DNA of 64,000 bases from Pirellulales bacterium (GTDB lineage: Bacteria > Planctomycetota > Planctomycetia > Pirellulales > PALSA-1355): positions 160,001 to 224,000 of the forward strand of contig CAVTBU010000007.1 in assembly GCA_963733035.1 (NCBI GenBank). The letters run 5' to 3'. The notes under the pieces were generated by a model. That model was given only the letters and a program-made list of their open reading frames with translations. It was not told the DNA's origin and ran no database searches. Numbering within the stretch: the stretch's first letter is position 1; every line of letters starts with the position of its first letter. This document shows positions 1 to 34,475 of this stretch, one piece after another. A program made the position numbers and the translations under genes.

Positions 1-504
1 GTCCTCGCCCGAGAGCGTCGTCAGCACGGGAATGCCCAGCTTGCGAATCTCGTGGGCCACGCCGATCAGCATGGCATTCGACAGGTGTACCACGTCGGGC
101 CGGGCTTCCTGCTCGATCCACCGTACCAGCTTCCGCACTTCCTTCCGCTGCCGGCCATGTTCGCCTTCGAGCATCGAGACCGTCAGGTCTCCCAACCGCT
201 CCGGCTCAATGCTCGGTCCGCCCCGCGTCAGCCACGCGATCATCCGCGGGTTGTCGAGCAGGTGATCCAGAAACCAGGGCGTATGCCGAAAGATGGACGA
301 GTGCTGCTGCAGGAAGACGTTGACGCCGCCAAAGAAGAGGTGCGAATCGCTGACGCTATCTTCATCGGTGCGGAGCGGCGTGTAGGTGGGCACGAGCAGC
401 ACATCCTCACCCAGCGCCGAGAGCGCGGCCGCCAGCGTGTTGTCGTGCAGGCAACTGCCGCAATACATGCCGGCCGCCCCGGCCGCCAGATAGAGAATCT
501 TCAT
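1..504 (-). CDS. Glycosyltransferase family 4 (GT-B), N-terminal part; runs off the window start
   Basis: Manual translation from ATG at 504: MKILYLAAGAAGMYCGSCLHDNTLAAALSALGEDVLLVPTYTPLRTDE..., a typical GT4 N-terminus. No stop before position 1. Confidence 0.75.
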   Translation of the reverse strand, partial: MKILYLAAGAAGMYCGSCLHDNTLAAALSALGEDVLLVPTYTPLRTDEDSVSDSHLFFGGVNVFLQQHSSIFRHTPWFLDHLLDNPRMIAWLTRGGPSIEPERLGDLTVSMLEGEHGRQRKEVRKLVRWIEQEARPDVVHLSNAMLIGVAHEIRKLGIPVLTTLSGED

Positions 505-872
505 AAGCCCCCGCCACGCTCAACGCCAAACGCGAATGCCCATCTATTTCGTCGCTGCCAATTGTAGAGGTCTTTGAGCGGATGGGAAATCGTCGACGGA
601 AAACGATGTAGGGCAGATCGCAGGAGGCGGACGCGTCACGCAAGCAGCGTCACTGGCACGAACAGCGTCCGCTAAGACTACTAGACAAGACGTTACTTAA
701 AGGTGGGGATCAGCTTTGCCTTGGCCTCGCTCATGGCAGATCATTTTCTTCAACGTGATGGAGCTTGGCAAAATCCATGATGTACAGTTTGCAGGCCCAT
801 CGAGTGCTACAATCGACCTGTCGAACAGGCGGCTAATGTCGAGATTTTCTTTTGCCTGGTGGCCTGCAATGA

Positions 873-1895
873 ATGGCTTCTTGTACGTGCGCGTCGCGGG
901 AAATCTCCGTCGACCGACTGCCATCTCTAATCCGGGCCTACCAGCAAAAGAACGCGAAGAGCGAATTCGACGCCTTCGGGTCCGGGCTCCAGGAGTTCAG
1001 CTCGCATGGACTGCTGTTTCGACGAATTGAGTCCTTGGCAGCAATCGAACTGGACCAGGTAGTCGTTGGACGCGACTATGAAACGCCCGGCGACTCGGGC
1101 CCCCACCAGGACTTTATCGGCGAAATGGGGCCGCAGACCAAACAGATGTTCTGCAGTTGGCAGACGCTTGTTGATCTGGAATCGCCGGTGGAAAGCAAGT
1201 TCGAACTGGCCGTGCACGGCGGGTGGCTTGTCCACGCCTCCTGGAATGAAGGTCGATGGTTTGCTGGATTTCATATCGGTAGTGCGTCCAAAGGCTTCCA
1301 GGAAATTGAGTACCGACATTTCTTGGTGGAACGCATCCTGGTCGCTATGGGCCTCGACGGCGGGATCAAAACCGAGTTCAATCAGGGCCACTTTACCATT
1401 TCTTCCCAGGAGCCTTGGCAGTTGCGCTTTATCCACGCCGGGCTCGGTGGACAAGATGCCCTCGGCATATGGTTTGGTGGCTTTTCCGACTATGCCCACG
1501 TGCTACGGGCCGCGCGTGGGGCGTTGCAGCATGTTTCGACCAAGATCTACGAGTGCAAAATTGCCGCCAGGTGCGATGCCTCGCAGTTTGAGTCGATCCG
1601 TGGACCGCTGAACGCGCTCGCTCATGATTGGCGCGTCGAACCCCTTGGCGAGTATACACCACGGGCGGCCGCCATTCTGGCGGGCGAAAGCGCCGACTTT
1701 GGCGAAATCTCCGTCATTCCAGCCGCTGAGTGGATCGAAAAGCGAAAAGGTGCGAAGGAGATTTTTCAACTGAACGTCCGCCCGGCCGGCCGCGGTTGCG
1801 TGCTCGAAGTGATTAGCGACTGTGCCGATGTGGACCGGCTGATGGATCGTGCCCAGATTCCTGCGGATCTTGGCTTTACGCTGGTCGCCAAATGA
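873..1895 (+). CDS. Hypothetical protein (340 aa) in the accessory islet; true start may be ATG 869 with a 1-nt indel at the G-run near 898-900
   Basis: Long ORF with globular composition. MNGFLYVRVAG from ATG 869 joins naturally to EISVDRLPSL if one base is added. Confidence 0.6.
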   Translation: MASCTCASREISVDRLPSLIRAYQQKNAKSEFDAFGSGLQEFSSHGLLFRRIESLAAIELDQVVVGRDYETPGDSGPHQDFIGEMGPQTKQMFCSWQTLVDLESPVESKFELAVHGGWLVHASWNEGRWFAGFHIGSASKGFQEIEYRHFLVERILVAMGLDGGIKTEFNQGHFTISSQEPWQLRFIHAGLGGQDALGIWFGGFSDYAHVLRAARGALQHVSTKIYECKIAARCDASQFESIRGPLNALAHDWRVEPLGEYTPRAAAILAGESADFGEISVIPAAEWIEKRKGAKEIFQLNVRPAGRGCVLEVISDCADVDRLMDRAQIPADLGFTLVAK

Positions 1896-1930
1896 TCGAC
1901 AGATTCACAAACCTCCATGCGGAGTGTTGG

Positions 1931-2253
1931 ATGCTTGAGGACACTGACAGGATTGACATGATCGCTCGAACGCCACGTGGCGATCTCGAACTGATTATCA
2001 CTGACTGTGGGATCACAACGAACAATCGTGCGCGATTTGACCTATTGGTTTCCAAGCTGCGGACGTACGTCGGCTATATCGTCAGCGACGAGTTCACAAG
2101 AGAAAACGGGAATAGCGCCCTGGCGACATCGCCATTCGTGTCGTTGCGGCTTCTCCTCCAACAGCACAAATGAAGCGAATCACGCAGGTAAACCCGTCTG
2201 ATCGCCCGGACCTTGCAATTCCGGTGCGGTACGAAGTATTTCCTCGGCCCTGA
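1931..2253 (+). pseudogene. DUF6572-like small (putative immunity) protein, frameshifted near 2110-2120
   Basis: GGAG RBS at 1921, then MLEDTDRIDMIARTPRGDLELIITD...FDLLVSKLRTYVGYIVSDEF. It continues in another frame as PGDIAIRVVAASPPTAQMKRI...VRYEVFPRP*, which resembles the DUF6572 pattern. Confidence 0.55.
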
Positions 2254-2362
2254 TCCAATTGCGGGTGCCATATGGTAGGCCGCGTTTCAATGGGCCTTCC
2301 GATCTTCTGCCCGCTGAAAGATCTTTGCTATTCGGCTCTGGTCACGGCGTGCATCTCGACGA

Positions 2363-2627
2363 AACGCGTTTGAAATCTCCCGCTTGAAATCGGGCCAGCA
2401 CCTGCGGCATACTCACCCGCGGTCGGATGGCCTGCGACGTGTGGACGAGCAACAAGCCTGGGACCTTGGTTGTCTTGTCTTTGGAACCTGCCCATCCCCG
2501 CCGACACGTTTCGGCGGCACGAGGATTACGGGGTTCGCTTGCGTCCACATGTTCGCCGCTTGGCCGCGCAGATACGCGGCGCCGGGGATCCACGGCGCTG
2601 CAACTTGCGCGGCAGGTCTGGCTGTCT
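2363..2627 (+). repeat. Direct repeat copy 1 (~265 bp): promoter plus 5' half of a candidate structured RNA
   Basis: Near-identical to 4159-4419; the central ~120 nt are identical. Confidence 0.95.
2384..2413 (+). promoter_or_regulatory. Sigma70-type promoter, TTGAAA-N18-CATACT (copy 1)
   Basis: Both hexamers are conserved between the repeat copies while the spacer bases differ. Confidence 0.55.
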
Positions 2628-2629
2628 AT

Positions 2630-3166
2630 TTGGCCTCCCGTGCTCGCGGAATTCGCGGGCCACGCAACCGTCCCAATAAGCCCCGTACCGCTACGCCGAT
2701 CGGCCGTAAGAAGCCGCGGTTTCCACCGCCAGTTGATACGATCCGGCTTACAAATCGACGAGGTCGCACGACACCCCATCCAAATCACGTGGTGTCGGTT
2801 GTAACAGAAGAGGAAGCGGCGCGGTTCCTTCATTCACTGCCCGACACCGCGGTGATATTCTGGGGTCAAAAAATCGGAAAACATCGCGCGGACATAATCA
2901 CGTTTAACCTTCGCACAAAGGTCGTAACTTTTTGGGACGTCAAGTATCGCAGCAGTCCTGTTCGAATTCAGGCATCCAAGACATTTGCGAAGGGCAAGCA
3001 ATCGCTGGAAAATGTCATTGTGCAGGCATACGATGCCGTCCTACTGTCCAGTCTAACGCCAGCCGACAAGGCAAGTGCCACAAAAGCATTGGTCTTGCGT
3101 CGATTTCAAGTTCGTACGCTCGGCGCCGGTGCTGCCAAGAACTCGAGTCTAGGAGGGTCCCCATGA
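2630..3166 (+). CDS. Putative orphan polymorphic-toxin C-terminal domain with a PD-(D/E)XK (restriction endonuclease-like) nuclease fold
   Basis: Motif H-R-A-D-I-I...V-T-F-W-D-V-K-Y-R-S with an upstream helical Glu (EEEAARFL). Basic protein whose stop overlaps the next ATG (ATGA). Start uncertain: TTG 2630, though the frame is open from 2384. Confidence 0.55.
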   Translation: MASRARGIRGPRNRPNKPRTATPIGRKKPRFPPPVDTIRLTNRRGRTTPHPNHVVSVVTEEEAARFLHSLPDTAVIFWGQKIGKHRADIITFNLRTKVVTFWDVKYRSSPVRIQASKTFAKGKQSLENVIVQAYDAVLLSSLTPADKASATKALVLRRFQVRTLGAGAAKNSSLGGSP

Positions 3167-3900
3167 CCTTTGATCCCAAGCGATTACGCAAGGGTTTACA
3201 CGAGTATCTGATTGCCCTGGCCGAGAATGCGAGCCTTGACGAGGCTCGACGTGGGGAATGCATCGGTAGTGTCGGAAACCACCTGTTGCACATCGCCTTG
3301 CAATGCATTTTGGTCGGCGAGTTTGCCATTGCTAAAACTGTTCTGGCGAAAGTGCGTCGGTTTTTGCAGGAAGCAATCGAAAAAGGGGAGCACGATACGC
3401 CCGGATTGCGGTTCGTACTCGACAATTATTCGCTGACGTCTTGGTTGGTCGAAGGGCGTGATGACAAATCGAGTCTCCGCGAGTGCGTCGCACTCCGAGA
3501 GAAATGGTTTCAAGGAAAGGGCAATCTGAACCGAACCGAAATGCAACTCTCGCTGCTGCCGTATTTGCAATCGGGGCAACTCGACACGCTCATGGCGCGC
3601 TACGAAAGTGTCGGACTCACGAAACCCAAGAGCCTGCGACACATCAAGGGGGAGGGTACGATGTGCTACGTGCTCGCACGCCATCGGCTGGGACTTGATT
3701 ACACCGACGACGAAATCTCGCAGGCACTTCAGACCTTTCTGAAACGCTGCATGGAAGATTGGCTGTTCGGTCACTATTGCACCGTCGCCCGCTGGATGAA
3801 AATCGCGCATTGGAAACCCGGCGACGATCCGATCGCCACCGTGCTGCGCTGCTACGACTATCTGCCGGGCCGCAAGCCGCCGAAGTATCCCCCTGGGTAG
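3163..3900 (+). CDS. Putative cognate immunity protein (helical, 245 aa)
   Basis: AGGAGG RBS; ATG 3163 overlaps the toxin stop; MTFDPKRLRK...YDYLPGRKPPKYPPG. Confidence 0.6.
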   Translation: MTFDPKRLRKGLHEYLIALAENASLDEARRGECIGSVGNHLLHIALQCILVGEFAIAKTVLAKVRRFLQEAIEKGEHDTPGLRFVLDNYSLTSWLVEGRDDKSSLRECVALREKWFQGKGNLNRTEMQLSLLPYLQSGQLDTLMARYESVGLTKPKSLRHIKGEGTMCYVLARHRLGLDYTDDEISQALQTFLKRCMEDWLFGHYCTVARWMKIAHWKPGDDPIATVLRCYDYLPGRKPPKYPPG

Positions 3901-4031
3901 ATTCGATCGTCTGGCCCGTCGAATCGCAAAGCGACCTCCTCAAGTGAGAACAAGGAAGCTTGTCACAGGCCGCCAACCAAACCAAATCTTCAGGCGGTCG
4001 GCGATGAGCGTTGTCGACGACGTCTGCCAAT

Positions 4032-4106
4032 CATACCAACCCGAAGCGCGAGCAAGGAAGGACACAGCATACGGAAAAGCCCTCGCTTGCGCTTCGGGTG
4101 AGTATG
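4032..4106. repeat. Planctomycete-type REP-like palindrome pair
   Basis: CATACCAACCCGAAGCGCGAGCAAGG ... CCTCGCTTGCGCTTCGGGTGAGTATG are inverted arms; the minus strand translates as TRSASEG. Confidence 0.75.
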
Positions 4107-4158
4107 GCCGTGGACGCTTTCACCGCGTCTCTGTCGCCGTCGCGATTTCTCCCACAAG

Positions 4159-4419
4159 AACGCGTTTGAAATCTCCGGCTTGAAATCGGGCCAGCACTTG
4201 CCGCATACTCACCCGCGGTCGGATGGCCTGCGATGTGTGGACGAGCAACAAGCCTGGGACCTTGGTTGTCTTGTCTTTGGAACCTGCCCATCCCCGCCGA
4301 CACGTTTCGGCGGCACGAGGATTACGGGGTTCGCTTGCGTCCACATGTTCGCCGCTTGCCGCAATACGACGGCGCCGGGGATCCACGGCGCTGCTCTTGC
4401 GCGGCAGGTCTGGCTGTCT
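4159..4419 (+). repeat. Direct repeat copy 2 (~261 bp)
   Basis: Near-identical to 2363-2627. Confidence 0.95.
4180..4209 (+). promoter_or_regulatory. Sigma70-type promoter, TTGAAA-N18-CATACT (copy 2)
   Basis: Hexamers and spacing; sits directly before a multi-hairpin region that ends in a terminator. Confidence 0.55.
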
Positions 4420-4669
4420 TTGCCGCACGAAGGTTTTTTAGCCTGGCTTGGCGGTGGCGGAAGCCGCCGTCACTTGACGTACTGGTAAAACGAGTGCTTC
4501 GTGCTGCATGCCGCGTGTCGCGCCGCTCGGTCGATGGCCGAGGAGTGACCAACCATTAACCACTTTCAAAGTCCAATCCCGGCTCAACCGAGCACGACAC
4601 GCTTCTGTTTTTAAAAAGCGTCCAACCAAACGCCGCGCGCACCCTTGCGCGCTGGCGTTTGGTTTTTTT
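4215..4669 (+). ncRNA. Candidate ~450-nt multi-domain structured ncRNA of unknown family
   Basis: Promoter upstream and terminator downstream; long stems with G-U pairs; GGAA tetraloop hairpin at 4449-4472; no convincing ORF. Confidence 0.5.
4624..4669 (+). terminator. Intrinsic terminator
   Basis: AACCAAACGCC-GCGCGCA-CCCT-TGCGCGC-T-GGCGTTTGGTT followed by a T-run. Confidence 0.8.
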
Positions 4670-4973
4670 GTTTTCAATTCGTCCTTTGTGCCCTTGGTGG
4701 TTTTTTATCAACATCCTGTTTTTAATTGCTTACAGTTGCCCCTTCGCAGCCTTGGGTTCATTCGGAAGAATCGCGATTCGCGTCCACAGGACCAGGGGCC
4801 GACGCCCGCTGGCCATTCGGGGTCGCCGCTGTGTGGCTTTATTCGTACCTCCTCAGGCCCAGCCCTGACCGACTGGGGACACGCTACTCCCGCTGCGAGA
4901 TTCAGGCACGGCGTATACAATGGTCACCACCTCGATGCGAATCAAAAGAAGCCCTCGGACGTCACGCGCCTTG

Positions 4974-6036
4974 ATGCTCCCCACGCTGCGAATTGGACCA
5001 ATTGAACTCGACTTTCCCGTCGTGCAGGCGGCCCTGTCGGGCTACAGCGATTGGGCGATGCGCGTGATCGCGCGGCGGCTGGGGGCGCCGTATACGCTTT
5101 GCGAGGTGATGCTCGATCAGTTCATCAACGAAGTGACCAAGGGGCGCAAGGCGCGGCGCTATCCTGCGCACCAGCGACGAAGAACATCCGGTCGGCGGGC
5201 AGTTGATGGGGGCCAACCCCGAGGATTTTGCTCCGGCCGCTCGGCACCTGGTCGAGGCCGGCTTCGACGTCGTCGATATCAACTTCGGCTGCCCGGTCAA
5301 AAAGGTGCTCGGCCGACAACGCGGAGGGTTCCTGCTGGGGCAAGTCGACACGGCGCTGGAAATCGTCTCGCGGGTGCGCGAGGCCGTGCCCGACCGCGTG
5401 CCGGTGACCGTCAAGATGCGCCGCGGGATCGACGATTCGGCCGAGAGCCGCGACAAGTTCTTCGAGATCTTCGACGGCGCCTTCGAGCGGGGCGTGGCGG
5501 CCATCACCGTGCACGGCCGTACCGTCAAGCAGCGCTACGTCGGGCCGAGCCGGTGGCAGTTTCTACGCGAAGTGAAACAGCATGCCGGCCAGCGCGCGGT
5601 GTTGGGGAGCGGCGACTTGTTCACGCCGCAAGCATGCCTCGACATGATGCGCGAGACGGGCGTCGACGGCGTAACGGCCGCCCGCGGCGCGATCGGCAAT
5701 CCCTGGATCTTCGCCCAGGCCCGAGCGCTCGCCGCCGGCCAGCCGCTTCCCGCGCCGCCGACGGTCCGCGAGCAGCGCGACGTGATCGCCGAGCACTATC
5801 GACTGAGCGAGGAACTCTACGGCCCCGAAACGAGCGGGCGGCAGATGCGGAAGTTCGGCATCAAGTACTCACAGCTCCATCCCCAGGGCAAACAGGTCCG
5901 CGACGCGTTCGTGAAAGTCGCCCGGCCCGGCGAGTGGCTGACGGTATTGGAACGGTGGTACGCCGCAGACGCTCCCGGCGTGCATCCCTCGGCCGAGGAA
6001 GAGCAATTGATGAATTGCAGCGAGTCGGCGGCGTAG
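4974..6036 (+). CDS. dusB: tRNA-dihydrouridine synthase (DusB-like), split by a +1 indel near 5163
   Basis: QAALSGYSD at the N-terminus; DINFGCP, VTVKMRRG, VHGRT, GSGDL and ARGAIGNPWIF in the second frame. Confidence 0.85.
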
Positions 6037-6054
6037 CACGGGCCCTGTCAGCGT

Positions 6055-7209
6055 TTAGCCGGGAGGCATCGCCGACCGCGTGCCGCTCGCCGCGGAATGG
6101 AGCGCCGCCGCGATTTCGGTCAGGACCTCGGGATCGTCTTCCCGCGGCAAGCGGTGCTCAATCGCCGCACGAGTCGCATCAGAAGCGAATTGACCAAGCG
6201 CCCAGGCGCAAGCTCCGCGCACCAGCGGCTCGTTGTCGCTGAGTCCGCGGATAAGTGCGGGAATTGCTTCGGTCGCCCGCTGGTTGCCCAGCACGATGGC
6301 CGCATTGCGCAGGATGCCGCGCCGCTTGGGGCGCCACAGCGGCGTGCGACGGAACCGAGCCTTGAAGCTGGCGTCATCCAAATCGAACAGGGCAATCAAG
6401 TCGAGCGTGGTCGCTCCGTCGCGCGGCTCGAGCGACGGCTCGTCGGTCGTCACCGGCTTATGATTCCAAGGGCAAACATCTTGGCAAACGTCGCAGCCAA
6501 ACACCCAATCCTGCATACCCGCGCGCAGTTCCGGCGGGATGGATTCGCGCCGCTCGATCGTCAGGTAACTGATGCACTTGCGGGCATCGAGCACGTACGG
6601 CTGGACGAAAGCCTCGGTGGGGCAGGCGTCGAGACAGGCCGTGCACGTGCCGCAGTGATCGGATTCGCGTGCATCGTCCGGCGGAAGTTCCAAATCGGTG
6701 AGCAGCGCCGCCAGGAAAAACCAACTGCCGGATGGCTTGTTCAGCAAAAGCGTGTTCTTGCCGATCCAGCCCAGCCCGGCCAGTTGCGCAAACTCGCGTT
6801 CCAACAGCGGTGCCGTGTCGACCACCGTTCGCGCCGACGCGGTCGGAGCGCGAGCGAGCAGAAACAGTTCCAGGCGTCGCAAACGCTCGCGGATCAAATC
6901 GTGATAGTCGTCTCCCCAGGCATACCGGGCCACGCGGCCGTGGCCCGGTTGAGGAGGCGCCGGCTCACGGGTACGATAAGGAAACGCAAGCACGAGCAGG
7001 CTGCGAACGCCGTCGAGCACATGCCGCGGATGCGAGTAGGCCTCGGCCCGATTCGGCAGATAGTGCATCGTGCCCGCGTAACCGGCGGCCAGCCACTCGG
7101 CAAAGCGATCGATGCCTGCGGGCGTGACGGCCGCGCACACGCCGGAGAGCGAAAAGCCCAGCCGTCGGGCTTCGTCTTTTAATGCGGCGGTGAGTTGTCT
7201 GTTGTCCAT
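6055..7209 (-). CDS. queG: tRNA epoxyqueuosine(34) reductase QueG with C-terminal HEAT repeats
   Basis: ARYAWGDDYH, VDTAPLLERE, GWIGKN, CGTCTACLDACPT, GCDVCQDVCPWN. Confidence 0.93.
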   Translation of the reverse strand: MDNRQLTAALKDEARRLGFSLSGVCAAVTPAGIDRFAEWLAAGYAGTMHYLPNRAEAYSHPRHVLDGVRSLLVLAFPYRTREPAPPQPGHGRVARYAWGDDYHDLIRERLRRLELFLLARAPTASARTVVDTAPLLEREFAQLAGLGWIGKNTLLLNKPSGSWFFLAALLTDLELPPDDARESDHCGTCTACLDACPTEAFVQPYVLDARKCISYLTIERRESIPPELRAGMQDWVFGCDVCQDVCPWNHKPVTTDEPSLEPRDGATTLDLIALFDLDDASFKARFRRTPLWRPKRRGILRNAAIVLGNQRATEAIPALIRGLSDNEPLVRGACAWALGQFASDATRAAIEHRLPREDDPEVLTEIAAALHSAASGTRSAMPPG

Positions 7210-7261
7210 GTGGTCACAAACGAAAACCTGACTGGTCTCGCCCGAGCGATCGCCCCCTCTG

Positions 7262-7531
7262 ATGTTTACACCAAAATGCCTGCACCTGCTCGCCGCCGCC
7301 CTGCTGGGGAGCGTGCTGTTTGTCGGCTGCGAGAAGCCCTTGGACTCGCCGGAGTACGGCGAGCTGATCCAGAAGATACCGCCGGAGTTTGACCGGCCGT
7401 TTCCGCTGCCTGAACTGGACCAGCCGAGCCCCTCGCCGCTCGCCGGCCCCGCCGAAGCCCCAACCGACCCGGCTCCGCCCGAAGCCGGCCCCGCCCAGGC
7501 GGAGACGCAGGACAAGGAAAGCCATAAATAG
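7262..7531 (+). CDS. Small Pro-rich lipoprotein
   Basis: Lipobox LFVGC after a hydrophobic stretch. Confidence 0.6.
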   Translation: MFTPKCLHLLAAALLGSVLFVGCEKPLDSPEYGELIQKIPPEFDRPFPLPELDQPSPSPLAGPAEAPTDPAPPEAGPAQAETQDKESHK

Positions 7532-7631
7532 CGCCTATTTTCTCTATTTTGAGGATTGCACTACCCCAGCTTCCCAAATAGCCTCAAAGAGAGAGGCATC
7601 TTCTGAGCTCTTCCTACGCGAGGTTTGTGAC

Positions 7632-8063
7632 ATGTTCCGGCGAGTGAGCCTGTGGGCGGTGTGTGGTGTTCTGTTGGCGGCAAGCTTTGGTGCTTCGCGG
7701 GCTTCGGCTCAATTCGGTCCGGGCGGCTACGGCATCGGCTTCTTCAACTACGGTGGCAACTACTACGGTGGCAACTATCGGGTGCCGTACTATGCCCTGT
7801 TTCCGCCGGTGTACTACAGCTATCCCGTACCGCGGACCTATGGTTACAGCCCATTTGCTTATCCTCCCGGAACGATGACGCCCAATGCACCGCAAAAGGT
7901 CGCCGCGGTCGAATACGCAAACCCGTTCGTGGGCGGCGCTCGCCAGGATGGAGCGGTGCCGGCACCGGTGGGTAAGCAAGAGCCGGTCGATCCGACGGCC
8001 TCGTTGCCACGAATGTACTACAATCCGTTCGTACAGCCCCCGCAAACTGCCAGCACGAAGTAG
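7632..8063 (+). CDS. Secreted Gly/Tyr/Pro-rich planctomycete protein
   Basis: Signal peptide ending ASA-Q; YGGNYYGGNY and PVYYSYPVPRTYGYSPFAYPPG; two YxNPFV motifs. Confidence 0.7.
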   Translation: MFRRVSLWAVCGVLLAASFGASRASAQFGPGGYGIGFFNYGGNYYGGNYRVPYYALFPPVYYSYPVPRTYGYSPFAYPPGTMTPNAPQKVAAVEYANPFVGGARQDGAVPAPVGKQEPVDPTASLPRMYYNPFVQPPQTASTK

Positions 8064-8336
8064 CAAGCACCTGCCGCCACCGGCGTTGGCGCGATGCAAG
8101 GTCCCACGGCCGTCGTGCATGCAAAACCGGCCTGGACCGATCCGGCCAAGTCGCTATTCTTATGCCCCCTCAGCGTGTGCGCCTGCGCACGCCTCGAGGA
8201 TCCCATCTCGTCGTTTCGCACGTTGCTCATCGATCGTAGGATTTTCCATCGCCCGCGTCCCAATCGCTTCGTCGGGACGTAGATTTCAAGCGGTGAGAAT
8301 CGGACGCGCTATATGGCGTCGAAAGGAGTTTGTCCG

Positions 8337-9769
8337 ATGAAACGGGCCTGGGCGGTCATTCTCACGGTTGCCACGCTGGCCGGTTGCCGCACCGCGCAGC
8401 CGACGAATCCGTTCCTGCGCACGACGGTTCCGCCGCCGGCGACCACGCCCGGCGTTGTCGTTACGCCGGGGACGCCCTATGCCCAGGGTATCTCGCCACC
8501 CATGGTCACGACACCCGCCCCGGCTTTCACAACGCCGCCGCCCGTGACCACGCAGCCGGTTCCGGTCACTCCGGCGCCGGTTGCTCCGGTCGCGCCGATT
8601 ACCGCTCCGCCGCCAGTCGTACCTCAAGGTGACCGGTTTAATCCGCCGGGCGGCTCGTATCTCTATCACCAAAGCTCGCACGAATCGCCAGCGGCCAAGG
8701 TGAAGGCATCTGCAACGAAGCTCACCCGCAATATCCATTCTGACCGCGTGGTGGTACAAGCGTGCTACGCGCCGCCGGTCGACCGCCCCAACACCGAGAT
8801 GTCGCCAGACGGCTTCATCGAGAACCCCTACGTCGTACGGCCCCGCAAAGTCCAGAATCCGCAGGCGGCCTCGGAAGACGGCTACATCGAAAACCCGTAC
8901 GTGAAACAGAAATCCAAGCTGCCCTCGCGTCCGCCAGTCGCGCGGAGACAATCGAGCGTTTCGAAGCCACCGACCTCGAAGGTCCCCTCGCTCGTTAAAT
9001 CTCCTCGGTCTGCCAAACCACTGCCGACCAGCAAAGCAATGCCGCGCGTCGCCGGGCCACCCGTGGCCGCGCCGGCGCGACCCGTGGCGACGCTCAGCAT
9101 CGGCGACGCGCCGGACAGCAATCACAGCTGCCTGCCAAGGTGAGCGTGATGGGGCCGGCCGAGGGCAACGTCATTCGGATCCTGGGGGAGTCGTTGCCCA
9201 GTGCCGGTCGGGCGACAGTTGTTTCAACCTCACCGCACGCGCCCGTAAACAGGCAGGTATTGCGTGCCGGTGAGCCACAATCGCCCCAATCGCCAACCGT
9301 GCTTCGCATCACGGCCGGGGCGCCACAACCGTCGTTGCAATCGGTCGTCCAAGCGTCCGGCACTTCATCGGAATCGAAGGTTGCGGTCCTGATTCCCGGC
9401 GGCAACACGGGCACCGCGGCCACATTTGTCTCTCCCAACGGCCACGACGAGCCGGTCGTCCAGACGACCTTTCAACCCAGTACGAATGGCGCAACGCCCC
9501 CCTATGGCCATACCCCGGATTACCGCACGCTGCGTGGCCGGTTGGAATACTCGCAAAGTCAGCGGCAATGGAAACTCCGTTATATCCCGATCGATGGGCA
9601 AACCGACCGGTTCGGTGGCAGTGTCATGCTTCCAGACGAGGCTGTTCAGGGGCGATTTCAACCGGGTGACTTTGTTGTCATCGAGGGGGCGCTGATCGAT
9701 AAAAACGCCTCCTCCAGCGGCTTCGCCCCGCGCTACCAGCCGACCACGATCATGGCGGCCGGCCGCTGA
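8337..9769 (+). CDS. Pro-rich lipoprotein with a small C-terminal beta domain; probably one gene split by an indel near 9125-9140
   Basis: MKRAWAVILTVATLAGC lipobox and AGGAG RBS; DG(F/Y)IENPYV twice; C-terminal YGHTPDYRTLRGRLEY...WKLRYIP...FGGSV in the next frame (9140-9769). Confidence 0.6.
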
Positions 9770-9975
9770 ATCGGTGACTCTTGGCCCCGCTGCACCAACT
9801 TTCCACCCGCCCCGGGCCGGCTTTTCGGCAATAGACGCGTGGCTTAAGATAGAATAACCGTGCTAGAGGCCACGTCTTTTCGGTCCAGAGACCCAGTTCC
9901 CCGTCGTCCCCCAGGCGCCGACCGCGTAGCAGGTGGTCGGACCCGGAAGTGGCCGACGGAAGAGGTTCGTTGTCT

Positions 9976-11955
9976 ATGCAACCCGGCCCTTCGATCGCTT
10001 CCAGGTCCCTGGCCGACGGTTTGCGCACGCCGCTGCAGACGGTATCGAACGGTCTGGCCCGGCGCCAAATCGCCCGTTGGACGGCGCGGTTGCCCAAGAT
10101 CGCGTCCTATGAAGAAGAGCTGAAGCAACTTTCGGCCTTCGATATGCGGAAACGGAGCCTTTCGCTCCGCTATCGGTTGAAGAGTCACGAGCCGGTCGAC
10201 CAGCTCCTGCCCGAGGCATTTGCCTTGGTGCGCGAAGCCGGTCGTCGCACGCTCAACATGCGACACTTCGACGTGCAGATGCTCGGCGGCATGGCCATGC
10301 ATCATCGCTCAATCGCCGAAATGCAGACGGGCGAAGGCAAGACGCTTACCGCCACGCTGCCTCTCTACCTGGCGGCGCTCGAGGGTAAAGGGGCTCACCT
10401 GGCCACGGTCAACGACTATCTGGCCCGCCGCGACGCCGAATGGATGACGCCCATCTACGAAAGCCTGGGCATTACGGTCGGTGTCGTCGAAACGAAGATG
10501 AACCAGGCCCAGCGACGCAAGGCCTATGCCTGCGATATCACCTACGGCACGGCCAAGGAGTTCGGCTTCGACTTCCTCCGCGACCGTTTGCTGCTACGCC
10601 GCATTGGCGAGGGACAAACCGACTTCTTGGGCGGTATGCTCGGCATGAACGCCGACTCGGGCGGTGAGCGGCCGGTGCAGCGCACGCCGTACTTCGTACT
10701 GGTCGACGAAGCCGATAGCATCCTGATTGACGAAGCCCGCACGCCGCTGATCATCAGCGCGCTGCCGAGCGAAGCCCAAATTATCGCCGTGGAGTGCTAC
10801 AAGTGGGCCGCATCCGTGGCCAATCAGTTCGAGGAGGACGAACACTACGAATACGATCACGAGCGCAAAACCGTTGAGTTGACGGCCGAAGGCCGCCGGC
10901 TGGTACGCAATCTGCCCAAGCCGGACGAAATGCACGCCGTCGGCATGTTCAGCATCTACGAATACATCGAACGCTCGGTCAAGGTCGAGCGCGAGTTTGT
11001 CCGCGACCGGCAATACGTCGTCCGCGACGGCGAAGTGGTGATCGTCGACGAATTCACCGGCCGCGCCGCCGAGGGCCGCAAGTGGCGCGCCGGCCTGCAT
11101 CAGGCCGTCGAAGCCGCCGAAGCCGACGTGGAGGTGACTGCCGAGGCCGGCCAGGCCGCCCGTATTACGGTGCAGGATTACTTCCATCTCTATCCGCATC
11201 TGTCGGGCATGACCGGTACGGGCATCACATCGGCCGCCGAATTGCGCAAGATCTACAAAATCCGCGTGCTGCAGGTACCGACCAATCGTCCAGCGATTCG
11301 CGAGCGCTGGCCCGACCGCGTCTTTGGCACCGACGACGAAAAATGGAATGCGATCGTCGAGGAGGTCGACGAAGTGCACGCGACGGGTCGACCGATCCTG
11401 ATCGGTACCCGGTCGATTGACAAGTCCGAACACCTCTCGATGCTGCTCAAACGGAAACACATCGAGCACGAAATTCTGAATGCCAATCACATCGAGGAGG
11501 AGGCCGAAATCGTTGCCAAGGCTGGCGGCCGTGGACGCGTGACGGTTTCCACGAACATGGCCGGACGCGGCACCGACATCAAGCTGGGCGACGGCGTTTT
11601 TGAACTGGGCGGGTTGCACGTGATCATGACCGAGATGCACGACTCGGCCCGCATCGATCGCCAATTGGCCGGCCGTTGCGGCCGACAGGGCGACCCAGGT
11701 ACCTACCGCGTCTACCTCTCGTTGGAAGACGAATTGTTGTTGGGTCTGGGGCCGGAAAAGGCCAAGTACTACCACGAATTTGGCGCCGAGCGGCCCGGCC
11801 GCTACGACCATCTGGCACGCCTATTCCACAAGGCTCAGCGTTTGCTCGAGCGGCGTCACTTCCGCGATCGCAAGATCCTGATGTACCACGAAAAGGAGCG
11901 CAAGAAACTGCAGATTCAAATGGGCCAGGATCCCTATCTCGACACGCCCGGTTAA
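9976..11955 (+). CDS. secA: SecA paralog (~660 aa) truncated after NBD2 and the start of the helical scaffold
   Basis: MQTGEGKT, VNDYLARRD, VDEADSILIDEARTPL, TNMAGRGTDI, RIDRQLAGRCGRQGDPG; ends about 70 aa after SLEDELL. Confidence 0.9.
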   Translation: MQPGPSIASRSLADGLRTPLQTVSNGLARRQIARWTARLPKIASYEEELKQLSAFDMRKRSLSLRYRLKSHEPVDQLLPEAFALVREAGRRTLNMRHFDVQMLGGMAMHHRSIAEMQTGEGKTLTATLPLYLAALEGKGAHLATVNDYLARRDAEWMTPIYESLGITVGVVETKMNQAQRRKAYACDITYGTAKEFGFDFLRDRLLLRRIGEGQTDFLGGMLGMNADSGGERPVQRTPYFVLVDEADSILIDEARTPLIISALPSEAQIIAVECYKWAASVANQFEEDEHYEYDHERKTVELTAEGRRLVRNLPKPDEMHAVGMFSIYEYIERSVKVEREFVRDRQYVVRDGEVVIVDEFTGRAAEGRKWRAGLHQAVEAAEADVEVTAEAGQAARITVQDYFHLYPHLSGMTGTGITSAAELRKIYKIRVLQVPTNRPAIRERWPDRVFGTDDEKWNAIVEEVDEVHATGRPILIGTRSIDKSEHLSMLLKRKHIEHEILNANHIEEEAEIVAKAGGRGRVTVSTNMAGRGTDIKLGDGVFELGGLHVIMTEMHDSARIDRQLAGRCGRQGDPGTYRVYLSLEDELLLGLGPEKAKYYHEFGAERPGRYDHLARLFHKAQRLLERRHFRDRKILMYHEKERKKLQIQMGQDPYLDTPG

Positions 11956-34281: not shown

Positions 34282-34475
34282 CAGCTAGTCTCGCCTTAGA
34301 CGGATCGAAAAATCTTTGAACTTCGCCACATCATCCAGCTTACCAAGTATAAGGTGGCCGAATTTCAAGGGTCAAGGGCACCGTAAGCCCGCTTCCCCTT
34401 AAGGATTATCGGCCATCGAGGTGCCGTCAACCAGCGGCAAAACGCGGCGCGAGGATCGCGGGAGACGACCTGGCG

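Follow-up and report, generated by a model that had tools for sequence, protein, structure and literature searches.

The left end of the window analysed here (64,000 nt from a Pirellulales bacterium, contig CAVTBU010000007.1, positions 160,001 to 224,000) carries two copies of the promoter and 5' domain of a structured RNA gene, one on each side of a polymorphic-toxin remnant and a candidate immunity gene. All of these features are encoded on the forward strand. The first, truncated copy consists of a 21-nt flank (2363-2383), a promoter with the sequence TTGAAA-N18-CATACT (2384-2413), and ~208 nt of RNA gene that correspond to the 5' domain only (2420-2627). Next comes the toxin remnant, a basic/proline-rich linker followed by a C-terminal domain (2630-3166), which was recognized through homologue, alignment, and fold searches. 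The stop codon of this open reading frame (ORF) overlaps, as ATGA, the start of the gene for a 245-aa immunity-protein candidate (3163-3900). Beyond this gene the 21-nt flank (4159-4179, identified by pairwise and multi-copy alignment) and the promoter (4180-4209) occur again, here in front of a full-length RNA gene of ~455 nt, a member of family A, whose ends are inferred (4216-4669). Both promoters were found by a promoter scan, which yielded 3 promoter-like sites in the region, compared with the 1.1 expected.

The initial annotation, made from the sequence alone, had described a direct repeat of ~265 bp in this region, with TTGAAA-N18-CATACT in both copies, and had taken it to be the promoter and 5' half of a structured RNA. 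The coordinates and extent of the repeat are borne out by a repeat search, BLAST, and pairwise alignment; the promoter is present in each copy, and the repeat contains ~208 of the ~455 nt of the RNA. BLAST aligns 2363-2627 with 4159-4419 at 95% identity over 266 columns. The repeat search resolves this into one segment of 200 nt at 98% (2363-2562 and 4159-4358, spacing 1796) and two segments at 100% (2577-2601 and 4370-4394, spacing 1793; 2604-2627 and 4396-4419, spacing 1792). In the pairwise alignment, identity begins at 2363/4159, which is 21 nt 5' of the -35 box, and it stops at 2627/4419, the very end that had been noted; the TTG at 2630, which had been put forward as a possible toxin start, is indeed in frame with the ORF ending at 3166. 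At the RNA/toxin junction, 2627/2628, there is patchy microhomology (TCT/ATTTGGCC compared with TCT/TTGCC). A chance origin of the repeat is excluded because the unit recurs 7 more times in this genome at 97-100%; these further copies came from the BLASTN search of the genome that had been proposed as a check.

The two copies of the repeat differ at 1 base in the 21-nt flank 5' of the -35 box, at 2 bases in the promoter spacer, at a C/T difference within GCGA[C/T]G, and in an indel-rich hairpin (2563-2603). The C/T difference sits in a long stem, where U-G replaces C-G, so that the claim of a substitution that preserves pairing holds; among 8 family-A copies all 3 substitutions in this long 5' stem pair (C-G/U-G, G-U/G-C). 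At 3 sites where the full neighbouring copy has private changes, the truncated copy has the family consensus, and it shares its hairpin allele with the contig-C4 copy rather than with its neighbour. A flank alignment indicates that the 21-nt upstream flank is common only to the two copies of this locus, as the other six copies differ. Because the truncated copy has the C4 hairpin allele yet the 21-nt flank of its neighbour, the RNA family is mosaic. Such mosaic alleles fit gene conversion.

The full RNA unit extends from 4180 to ~4669, that is, from the promoter through an intrinsic terminator, a GC-rich hairpin followed by T7 (4625-4669). This terminator was identified by folding, and homology among the copies ends just past it. 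A conserved 3' core within the RNA (4524-4594) scores 85-96 bits with two covariance models, R1 and R2, the second of which includes sequences from congeners. The minimum free energy of 4210-4690 is -215.9 kcal/mol (z = -4.6 relative to shuffles). With the 14 full copies then known, RNAalifold gave 77 pairs, 25 of which have compensatory changes. The core model has 96.8% of its cells paired, with both sides changed in 4 pairs; none of 500 shuffles reached the covariation score of the core, and slid controls are only 26-56% paired. The covariation analysis suggested at the outset has thus come out in favor of a conserved structure. In addition, the helix that closes the 3' domain occurs with four distinct sequences (those of subfamilies A, B, and C and that of the congeners), each of which makes a long helix around the core. 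A consensus fold of 8 copies places the breakpoint of the truncated copy at the end of the 5' domain, and the long 5' hairpin persists in the predicted fold of the chimeric transcript. The unit is, as predicted from these features, an independent structured RNA gene that would be transcribed from its own promoter and end at its own terminator. A conserved small ORF within the RNA was considered and rejected; reading frames differ between the subfamilies, and indels of 1, 3, and 4 nt separate the copies.

This RNA gene belongs to a family. BLAST of this genome, which is assembled into 10 contigs, finds 7 full family-A copies, 97-100% identical and spread over five contigs, in addition to the truncated one. 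Subfamilies B (4 copies) and C (4 copies) share with family A the promoter, a 5' motif, and the ~70-nt 3' core, which is common to all subfamilies and to the congeners. Thus, model R1 of the core identifies 15 copies (7 A, 4 B, and 4 C), all of them resolved inside contigs. An alignment that included the flanks shows that homology among the A copies runs from 1-2 nt 5' of the -35 box to just past the terminator. The variable hairpin of family A has at least 2 allele forms and holds the differences other than the stem substitutions. Four A copies share an extra 72-166 nt downstream at ~99-100%; for the copy in the window this flank (4673-4838) matches that of the contig-C8 copy at 100%, and its first 72-74 nt are also present at two further copies. 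A larger mobile element around the RNA copies was rejected, since the shared flanks comprise only these 72-166 nt in four A copies. The genes beside different RNA copies are unrelated to one another.

Several observations concern the surroundings of individual copies. At C5:2649360-2649412 there is a degenerate promoter together with ~25 nt from the start of a subfamily-C RNA (75-79% identity). It sits ~70 nt upstream of the full copy C_2649, making a second tandem of a 5' fragment and a full copy. Two C copies on C5, C_1082 and C_2649, are both preceded by a 1988-bp stretch (98% identical), at a distance of 116 nt in one case and ~980 nt in the other; this stretch is possibly an insertion sequence (IS). 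An IS200-like Y1 transposase gene (C8:11396-11854, minus strand; PF01797, 2.7e-24) is located 160 nt upstream of the A copy on C8, on the opposite strand. Downstream of one B copy there are three repeats of a ~95-130-nt motif (containing CTTTGTGCC and TTGGTGG); the regions with this motif downstream of B_215 and B_666 are C8:~215660-216200 and C7:~665100-665680, respectively. A related motif also follows A copies and the copies of the congeners.

The promoter of the RNA gene has an extended form, made up of an A-rich upstream element, a CTTGAAATCGGGCCAGC spacer, and a -10-like hexamer. This extended motif precedes all 15 RNA genes, and it is found at more than 40 further sites in the genome. 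These include a tRNA-Arg gene identified by ARAGORN and ORFs that were read as ribosomal protein S15, acetolactate synthase, and xylose isomerase (names assigned by reading). Consequently, the conservation of the promoter among the RNA subfamilies is not specific to the RNA, the motif being general. Its presence in front of such genes suggests strong, housekeeping-type transcription. A multicopy gene whose product starts MVKRG also has the extended motif in front of it. Example sites are C5:1448560(-), C6:346978(+), and C5:1872646(-), with a weaker one in the window near 34369(-). A conserved spacer of this kind is unusual among sigma-70-type promoters.

The RNA does not correspond to a described family. 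Searches against Rfam gave no match at the gathering score in the whole window and no match at E<=10 in 2200-4950, and the loci of the relatives gave, at E<=1, only a chance miRNA match far under its cut-off. ARAGORN found no tRNA or transfer-messenger RNA (tmRNA) in positions 1-10000 of the window. RNase P RNA (C5:577748-578166), tmRNA (C3:1-347), and signal recognition particle (SRP) RNA (C5:806302-806400) are each present elsewhere in the genome above the respective cut-off; derivation of the family from any of these three was rejected, as the sequence similarity is not significant. No match to RF00013, the 6S RNA model, was found in the whole genome, a weak negative given that the model matches only 5 of 14 known genomes in a control. 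The absence of an RF00013 match elsewhere in the genome does not identify the RNA family as 6S. The idea of a CsrA sponge was set aside after GGA motifs, judged by eye, seemed not clearly above the expectation from composition. Literature searches on noncoding, multicopy, or structured RNA in Planctomycetes brought up no report of such an RNA.

Outside this genome the RNA is rare. BLASTN with the RNA, another of the proposed checks, found no match in 32 genomes of the same family. The core model R1 finds it in 3 of 33 family genomes, namely this genome and two of its three congeners (G013 and G014, with several copies), and in none of the 29 others; G015, the third congener, has no copy by either method. 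Model R2 gave convincing matches among 151 genomes of the order only in this genome and G013. Three weak matches at the order level (30-33 bits) were attributed to chance, being GC-rich stretches without the promoter. A first pattern scan of genome contigs found no match. A second, with one genome per species, found 10 loci: four, from two records, reach 68-70 bits with R2 and are not counted as genomes additional to the congeners, and the remaining six score at most 28 bits. A pattern scan of metagenomes returned at least 120 stretches, of which 80 were scored; the best of those scored reached 27.6 bits, and none was convincing. Two other metagenome stretches were discarded because they look like histidine-kinase coding sequence. 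Collections of phages and plasmids gave no match to the RNA. Thus, in the genomes searched, the RNA family is confined to one Pirellulales genus.

In the congeners the RNAs are longer and have variable insertions. A fourth full copy in G014 scores 50.9 bits. The R1 copy numbers in the congeners are minima because the RNA is a repeat there and matching stretches end at contig ends, as do 6 of the 7 extra stretches fetched from G013 and G014. One G013 copy (G013:C8, at ~1165-1320 of the locus) has inside it a palindromic repeat element of ~150 nt, which matches on both strands; the element is absent from the corresponding G014 copy and is common throughout the G013, G014, and G015 genomes. Upstream of the RNA promoter, the congeners have an extra ~240 nt that is conserved among paralogues and between both species. 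This region contains a CGCGCACGATCCGCGCGC hairpin, and the copies of the present genome are without it. At two other RNA copies a comparison of synteny left the insertion ends undefined, because the intergenic DNA is not alignable between species (~75-85% identity in genes).

The ORF that follows the truncated RNA gene is, judging by its homologues, the C-terminal (CT) domain of a polymorphic toxin. A phmmer search of 1.84 billion representatives found 186 homologues of the domain (97 at E<=1e-10). In all 13 homologues with E<=1e-30, in proteins as long as 7649 aa, no more than 10 residues separate the end of the match from the C-terminus. A Pfam analysis of 16 homologues identified RHS repeats in 2, TPS and haemagglutinin repeats (Fil_haemagg) in 3, Fil_haemagg_2 with PT-HINT in 1, LysM in 1, and nothing in 9. 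The domain itself belongs to no Pfam or NCBIfam family, and no other copy of it is present in this genome. The ORF is 55% identical to residues 350-473 of a 474-aa toxin of the congener G015. The N-terminal ~290 aa, including the delivery part, are absent from the window toxin, and sequence of the RNA gene stands upstream instead.

In an alignment of 50 sequences, D88 and K105 of the toxin domain are invariant and D103, W102, and R107 nearly so; all of these residues are present in the window protein. An AlphaFold model of the domain has a pLDDT of 91.7. Foldseek returned no significant match with this model (best E 0.12), and its list is dominated by HincII, Hjc, RecU, SfsA, and Cas4. VIA-align aligned the model with HamA (Z 7.0, root-mean-square deviation 4.8, 137 residues aligned), with Hjc (1ob8, Z 6.0), and with the Burkholderia CdiA-CT 4g6v (Z 3.9); none of its matches reached Z>=8, the range that the tool calls safe. 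Given a list dominated by PD-(D/E)xK proteins and scores below the safe range, the designation "nuclease-like toxin domain" is therefore reasonable, as yet unproven. The initial annotation had named a nuclease toxin-immunity pair directly abutting the repeat, and this description finds support in the predicted PD-(D/E)xK-like fold, the conserved D...D-x-K, and the immunity-type gene that follows.

The 245-aa gene, directly downstream of the toxin domain, is a candidate for the cognate immunity gene. Its product has 60 homologues of ~245-260 aa and no Pfam family. The translation signals of the two genes were compared by reading. AGGAGGG is located 6 nt upstream of the ATG of the immunity gene. 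The starts available to the toxin ORF are the TTG at 2630 and GTG codons at 2786/2789, with no GGAGG-like site nearby. Both terminator-like elements of the RNA belong to the 3' half that the truncated copy lacks, so that no intrinsic terminator of the RNA comes before the immunity gene. The stretch from the immunity gene to the full RNA gene contains a strong inverted repeat with 26-nt arms (4032-4106). The fold of 4025-4115 has a free energy of -42.6 kcal/mol; the inverted repeat is followed by no T-run, and its sequence is unique in the genome. This element may end or insulate the transcript.

The history of the locus can be approached through the congeners, in all three of which the same two genes are adjacent. 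On the left is a glycosyltransferase gene (5' part at 1-504 of the window, minus strand; tblastx 84-86% to G013, G014, and G015), whose G015 orthologue matches Glycos_transf_1. On the right is dus, the gene for tRNA-dihydrouridine synthase (4920-6036, plus strand; PF01207, 1.5e-54). In G015, a promoter-like site comes first, followed by a 225-aa ORF, the complete toxin (474 aa), and a tandem array of five immunity paralogues. At 4942-8829 of this locus (C27), 3 of the 5 paralogues have the terminal residues of the toxin (...GNAKNSAIGD) at their own ends, which gives the impression that the 3' end of the toxin was carried along whenever the immunity gene was duplicated. In G013 (C12, ~7102-7220 of the reversed locus), the promoter-like site is as in G015 and two immunity genes are retained; the toxin is reduced to its last ~17 codons, which the beginning of the 225-aa ORF runs into out of frame. 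Since the toxin has been lost and immunity genes kept, G013 represents an independent occurrence of such a loss. In G014, the site is empty, with ~160 bp between the two border genes. None of the three congeners has an RNA gene at this position. Thus, the glycosyltransferase/dus site is a hot spot for toxin/immunity genes in the genus.

The window genome lacks the native promoter, the 225-aa ORF, and the N-terminal part of the toxin; an unrelated 340-aa ORF, a 93-aa ORF, and the truncated RNA gene occupy their place. The 340-aa ORF (873-1895, plus strand) has no Pfam or NCBIfam match and no tblastx match at the locus of the congeners; its Atlas scores are at most 0.82 and provided no lead. The 93-aa ORF (1892-2173, plus strand) starts at an ATGA overlap with the preceding stop codon and scores 26.3 bits with PF20212 (DUF6572), for which the cut-off is 27. 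This pair (873-2173), with an ATGA overlap like that of toxin-immunity pairs, is absent from the locus of the congeners.

The genes beside the other RNA copies were scanned as well, using 40 ORFs, of 42 chosen, next to the 14 other copies. Sixteen of the 40 have a Pfam match, in every case housekeeping or IS200-like. The families are Rrf2, PAPS reductase, FadL-type, P450, DUF1559, HD, TfoX, polyphosphate kinase, PTS EIIA, LRR, FAD enzyme, ABC permease, AAA, DksA-type zinc finger, beta-helix, and, once, an IS200-like transposase. Among these 40 ORFs there are no toxin/immunity families and no integrase families. The tabulation of neighbouring genes that had been proposed therefore gives no association with toxins, and a general role of the RNA as leader or partner of toxin modules is thus unsupported.

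Beginning from what can be seen directly (the anatomy of the locus, the RNA family, the shortened toxin, and what the congeners have at this site), we infer, with a little more confidence than doubt, a one-off rearrangement in which a truncated RNA gene replaced the promoter and 5' part of the toxin gene and came to drive the orphan remnant together with the immunity gene. The starting point would be the polymorphic toxin/immunity island that the glycosyltransferase/dus site holds in the genus. The rearrangement would have joined position ~208 of the RNA to the toxin linker, probably by microhomology-mediated illegitimate recombination. The captured piece, which extends from the 21-nt flank through the promoter to nucleotide ~208 of the RNA, would in this way have become fused to the last third of the toxin gene, with loss of the native toxin promoter, the upstream ORF, and the N-terminal ~290 aa. 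The housekeeping-type RNA promoter would then transcribe the 5' RNA domain, the toxin remnant, and the immunity gene, in that order. Of the two proteins, the toxin remnant would have poor translation signals and no delivery part, and the immunity gene would have a good ribosome-binding site. Selection would keep the immunity gene expressed, the likely benefit being protection from kin in which the toxin is still present. The 5' RNA domain would be a passenger, and the full RNA gene at 4180-4669 an ordinary member of its family. Homologous recombination between the 265-bp repeats could delete the cassette; as the initial annotation had calculated, ~1.8 kb would be excised, the deletion spanning 1796 bp. 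That annotation had also raised the option of a portable leader that expresses orphan toxins. In its general form this option is not supported, as 0 of the 14 other copies have a recognizable toxin or immunity neighbour; in a narrow form, the local capture of a promoter at this locus, it is the reading favored here.

Several points weigh against a promoter capture of this kind. The transcript from 2413 through 3900 is a predicted one. Upstream, within the RNA sequence, the toxin frame stays open for 82 codons, and D88, D103, and K105 are kept, so that some translation of the toxin remnant is possible. If the locus arose by simple deletion, the RNA gene must already have been duplicated there. 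The degenerate remnant at C5:2649360-2649412 hints that 5' partial duplications recur. Of the 40 neighbour ORFs, 24 have no Pfam match, and with these it is possible that toxin/immunity genes beside other RNA copies went unrecognized. Finally, direct repeats around a cassette, an intact gene on one side, and a shared 21-nt flank are also the outcome of a single crossover with a circle.

The last point leads to the main alternative, akin to the proposal that the RNA is an integration target, in which the RNA gene is a landing pad. A cassette with its own flank, promoter, and 5' domain would have entered an intact RNA gene by a single crossover, bringing the toxin remnant, the immunity gene, and a 258-bp spacer, and could later be released as a 1.8-kb circle; cassettes would then be exchanged with the multicopy RNA genes as portable homology. 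The 265-bp direct repeats that flank the cargo and the intact gene restored on the right are what such an event would produce, and the C4 hairpin allele of the left copy is expected if that copy is of foreign origin. Weak hints also come from the second 5' remnant upstream of C_2649 and from the palindromic repeat element within one congener's RNA copy, and the mosaic alleles and 100% identical flanks of some copies point to active recombination. However, gene conversion explains the mosaic alleles equally well, and a local origin is favored by the 21-nt flank, which is private to the two local copies. Neither the cassette nor the ORFs scanned beside other copies include an integrase or recombinase gene, there is a single cargo-bearing case, and in the congeners the cargo island is native to the locus with no RNA gene there. 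On balance, such an integration is unlikely. A broader version, in which the RNA gene is a self-amplifying unit from promoter to terminator whose dispersed copies, as portable units of homology and promoter, capture, express, and excise foreign or orphan cassettes by recombination within the 5' domain, is distinctly improbable. If it were true, the subfamilies would expand in bursts, as with the 7 copies at 97-100% and the repeats that break the assemblies of the congeners.

It is more doubtful still that the chimera is functional as an RNA-controlled toxin-immunity module, either because the 5' RNA domain acts in cis as a leader or because the full RNA acts in trans through the shared 208 nt. 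The piece retained is a self-contained domain, with the breakpoint at its end and a hairpin that persists in the predicted fold, and the truncated copy retains the consensus at the three sites where its neighbour has private changes. Gene conversion likewise predicts a retained consensus, however, and sense-sense identity offers no base-pairing between the two transcripts. The islands of the congeners work without the RNA. Moreover, 0 of the 14 other copies adjoin a recognizable toxin or immunity gene, which also speaks against the earlier suggestion that the full-length copy is an RNA partner of the toxin module. That the duplication is an artefact of assembling a repeat family is unlikely to the point of being scarcely credible: the RNA repeat does break the congener assemblies, with those 6 of 7 extra stretches stopping at contig ends, but here the copies differ by substitutions and indels, and neither the left junction (2627/2628) nor the 1.5 kb of intervening sequence recurs in the genome. 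In the congeners, moreover, the toxin and immunity genes belong natively to this locus; the contig has a length of 752 kb, and all 15 copies fall inside contigs.

If the promoter was captured as proposed, the locus is a concrete and datable case in which an orphan immunity gene is predicted to be kept expressed via the promoter of an unrelated stable RNA, and the three congeners show intact, toxin-deleted, and empty states of the same locus. Such a case is relevant to the origin of immunity repertoires and of "cheater" genotypes in contact-dependent competition. The more valuable outcome is an unannotated family of large structured RNAs with covarying helices and housekeeping-type promoters.

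Among known systems, this RNA family most resembles in size class the large structured bacterial RNAs of unknown function, such as OLE, GOLLD, ROOL, HEARO, and raiA, all of which are Rfam families. It is like them in its covarying structure and in having no coding potential conserved between subfamilies; it differs in having no Rfam match, in being limited to a single genus, and in its far higher copy number. LhrC, Qrr, and RsmX/Y/Z are multicopy families of small RNAs, ~100-150 nt in length, with known regulators and targets. They share with the present family an arrangement of dispersed, near-identical paralogous RNA genes, each with a promoter and a terminator. However, the RNA of the window is ~455 nt (longer in the congeners), has variable inserted hairpins, and occurs in 15 copies.

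The cassette itself can be compared with the islands found at tRNA and tmRNA genes, in which an integrase is present and the duplicated portion, some tens of bases long, is usually from the 3' part of the gene. As in these islands, cargo lies between direct repeats of part of an RNA gene, one copy is intact, and recombination removes the cargo. Unlike them, the locus duplicates 265 bp of the 5' part together with the promoter, has no integrase, and carries a cargo that is native in relatives. The toxin and immunity genes find their closest counterpart in the orphan cdiA-CT/cdiI and rhs-CT/rhsI modules of contact-dependent growth inhibition (CDI) and Rhs systems. As described by Poole et al. 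(2011), such orphans are detached toxin CTs that lack the delivery part and mostly lack translation initiation signals; an expressible immunity gene follows, and the modules are thought to be retained as an immunity repertoire (PMC3150448). They are described as situated 3' of a full-length toxin gene, as sharing its transcript, and as retaining part of its conserved coding sequence (PMC3150448). The module of the window is likewise a CT without a delivery part followed by an immunity gene, and its toxin domain is also found at the ends of RHS and CdiA-like proteins. The module differs from orphans as they are described there in that the genome has no full-length toxin, and in that what stands upstream is instead the promoter and 5' domain of a noncoding RNA.

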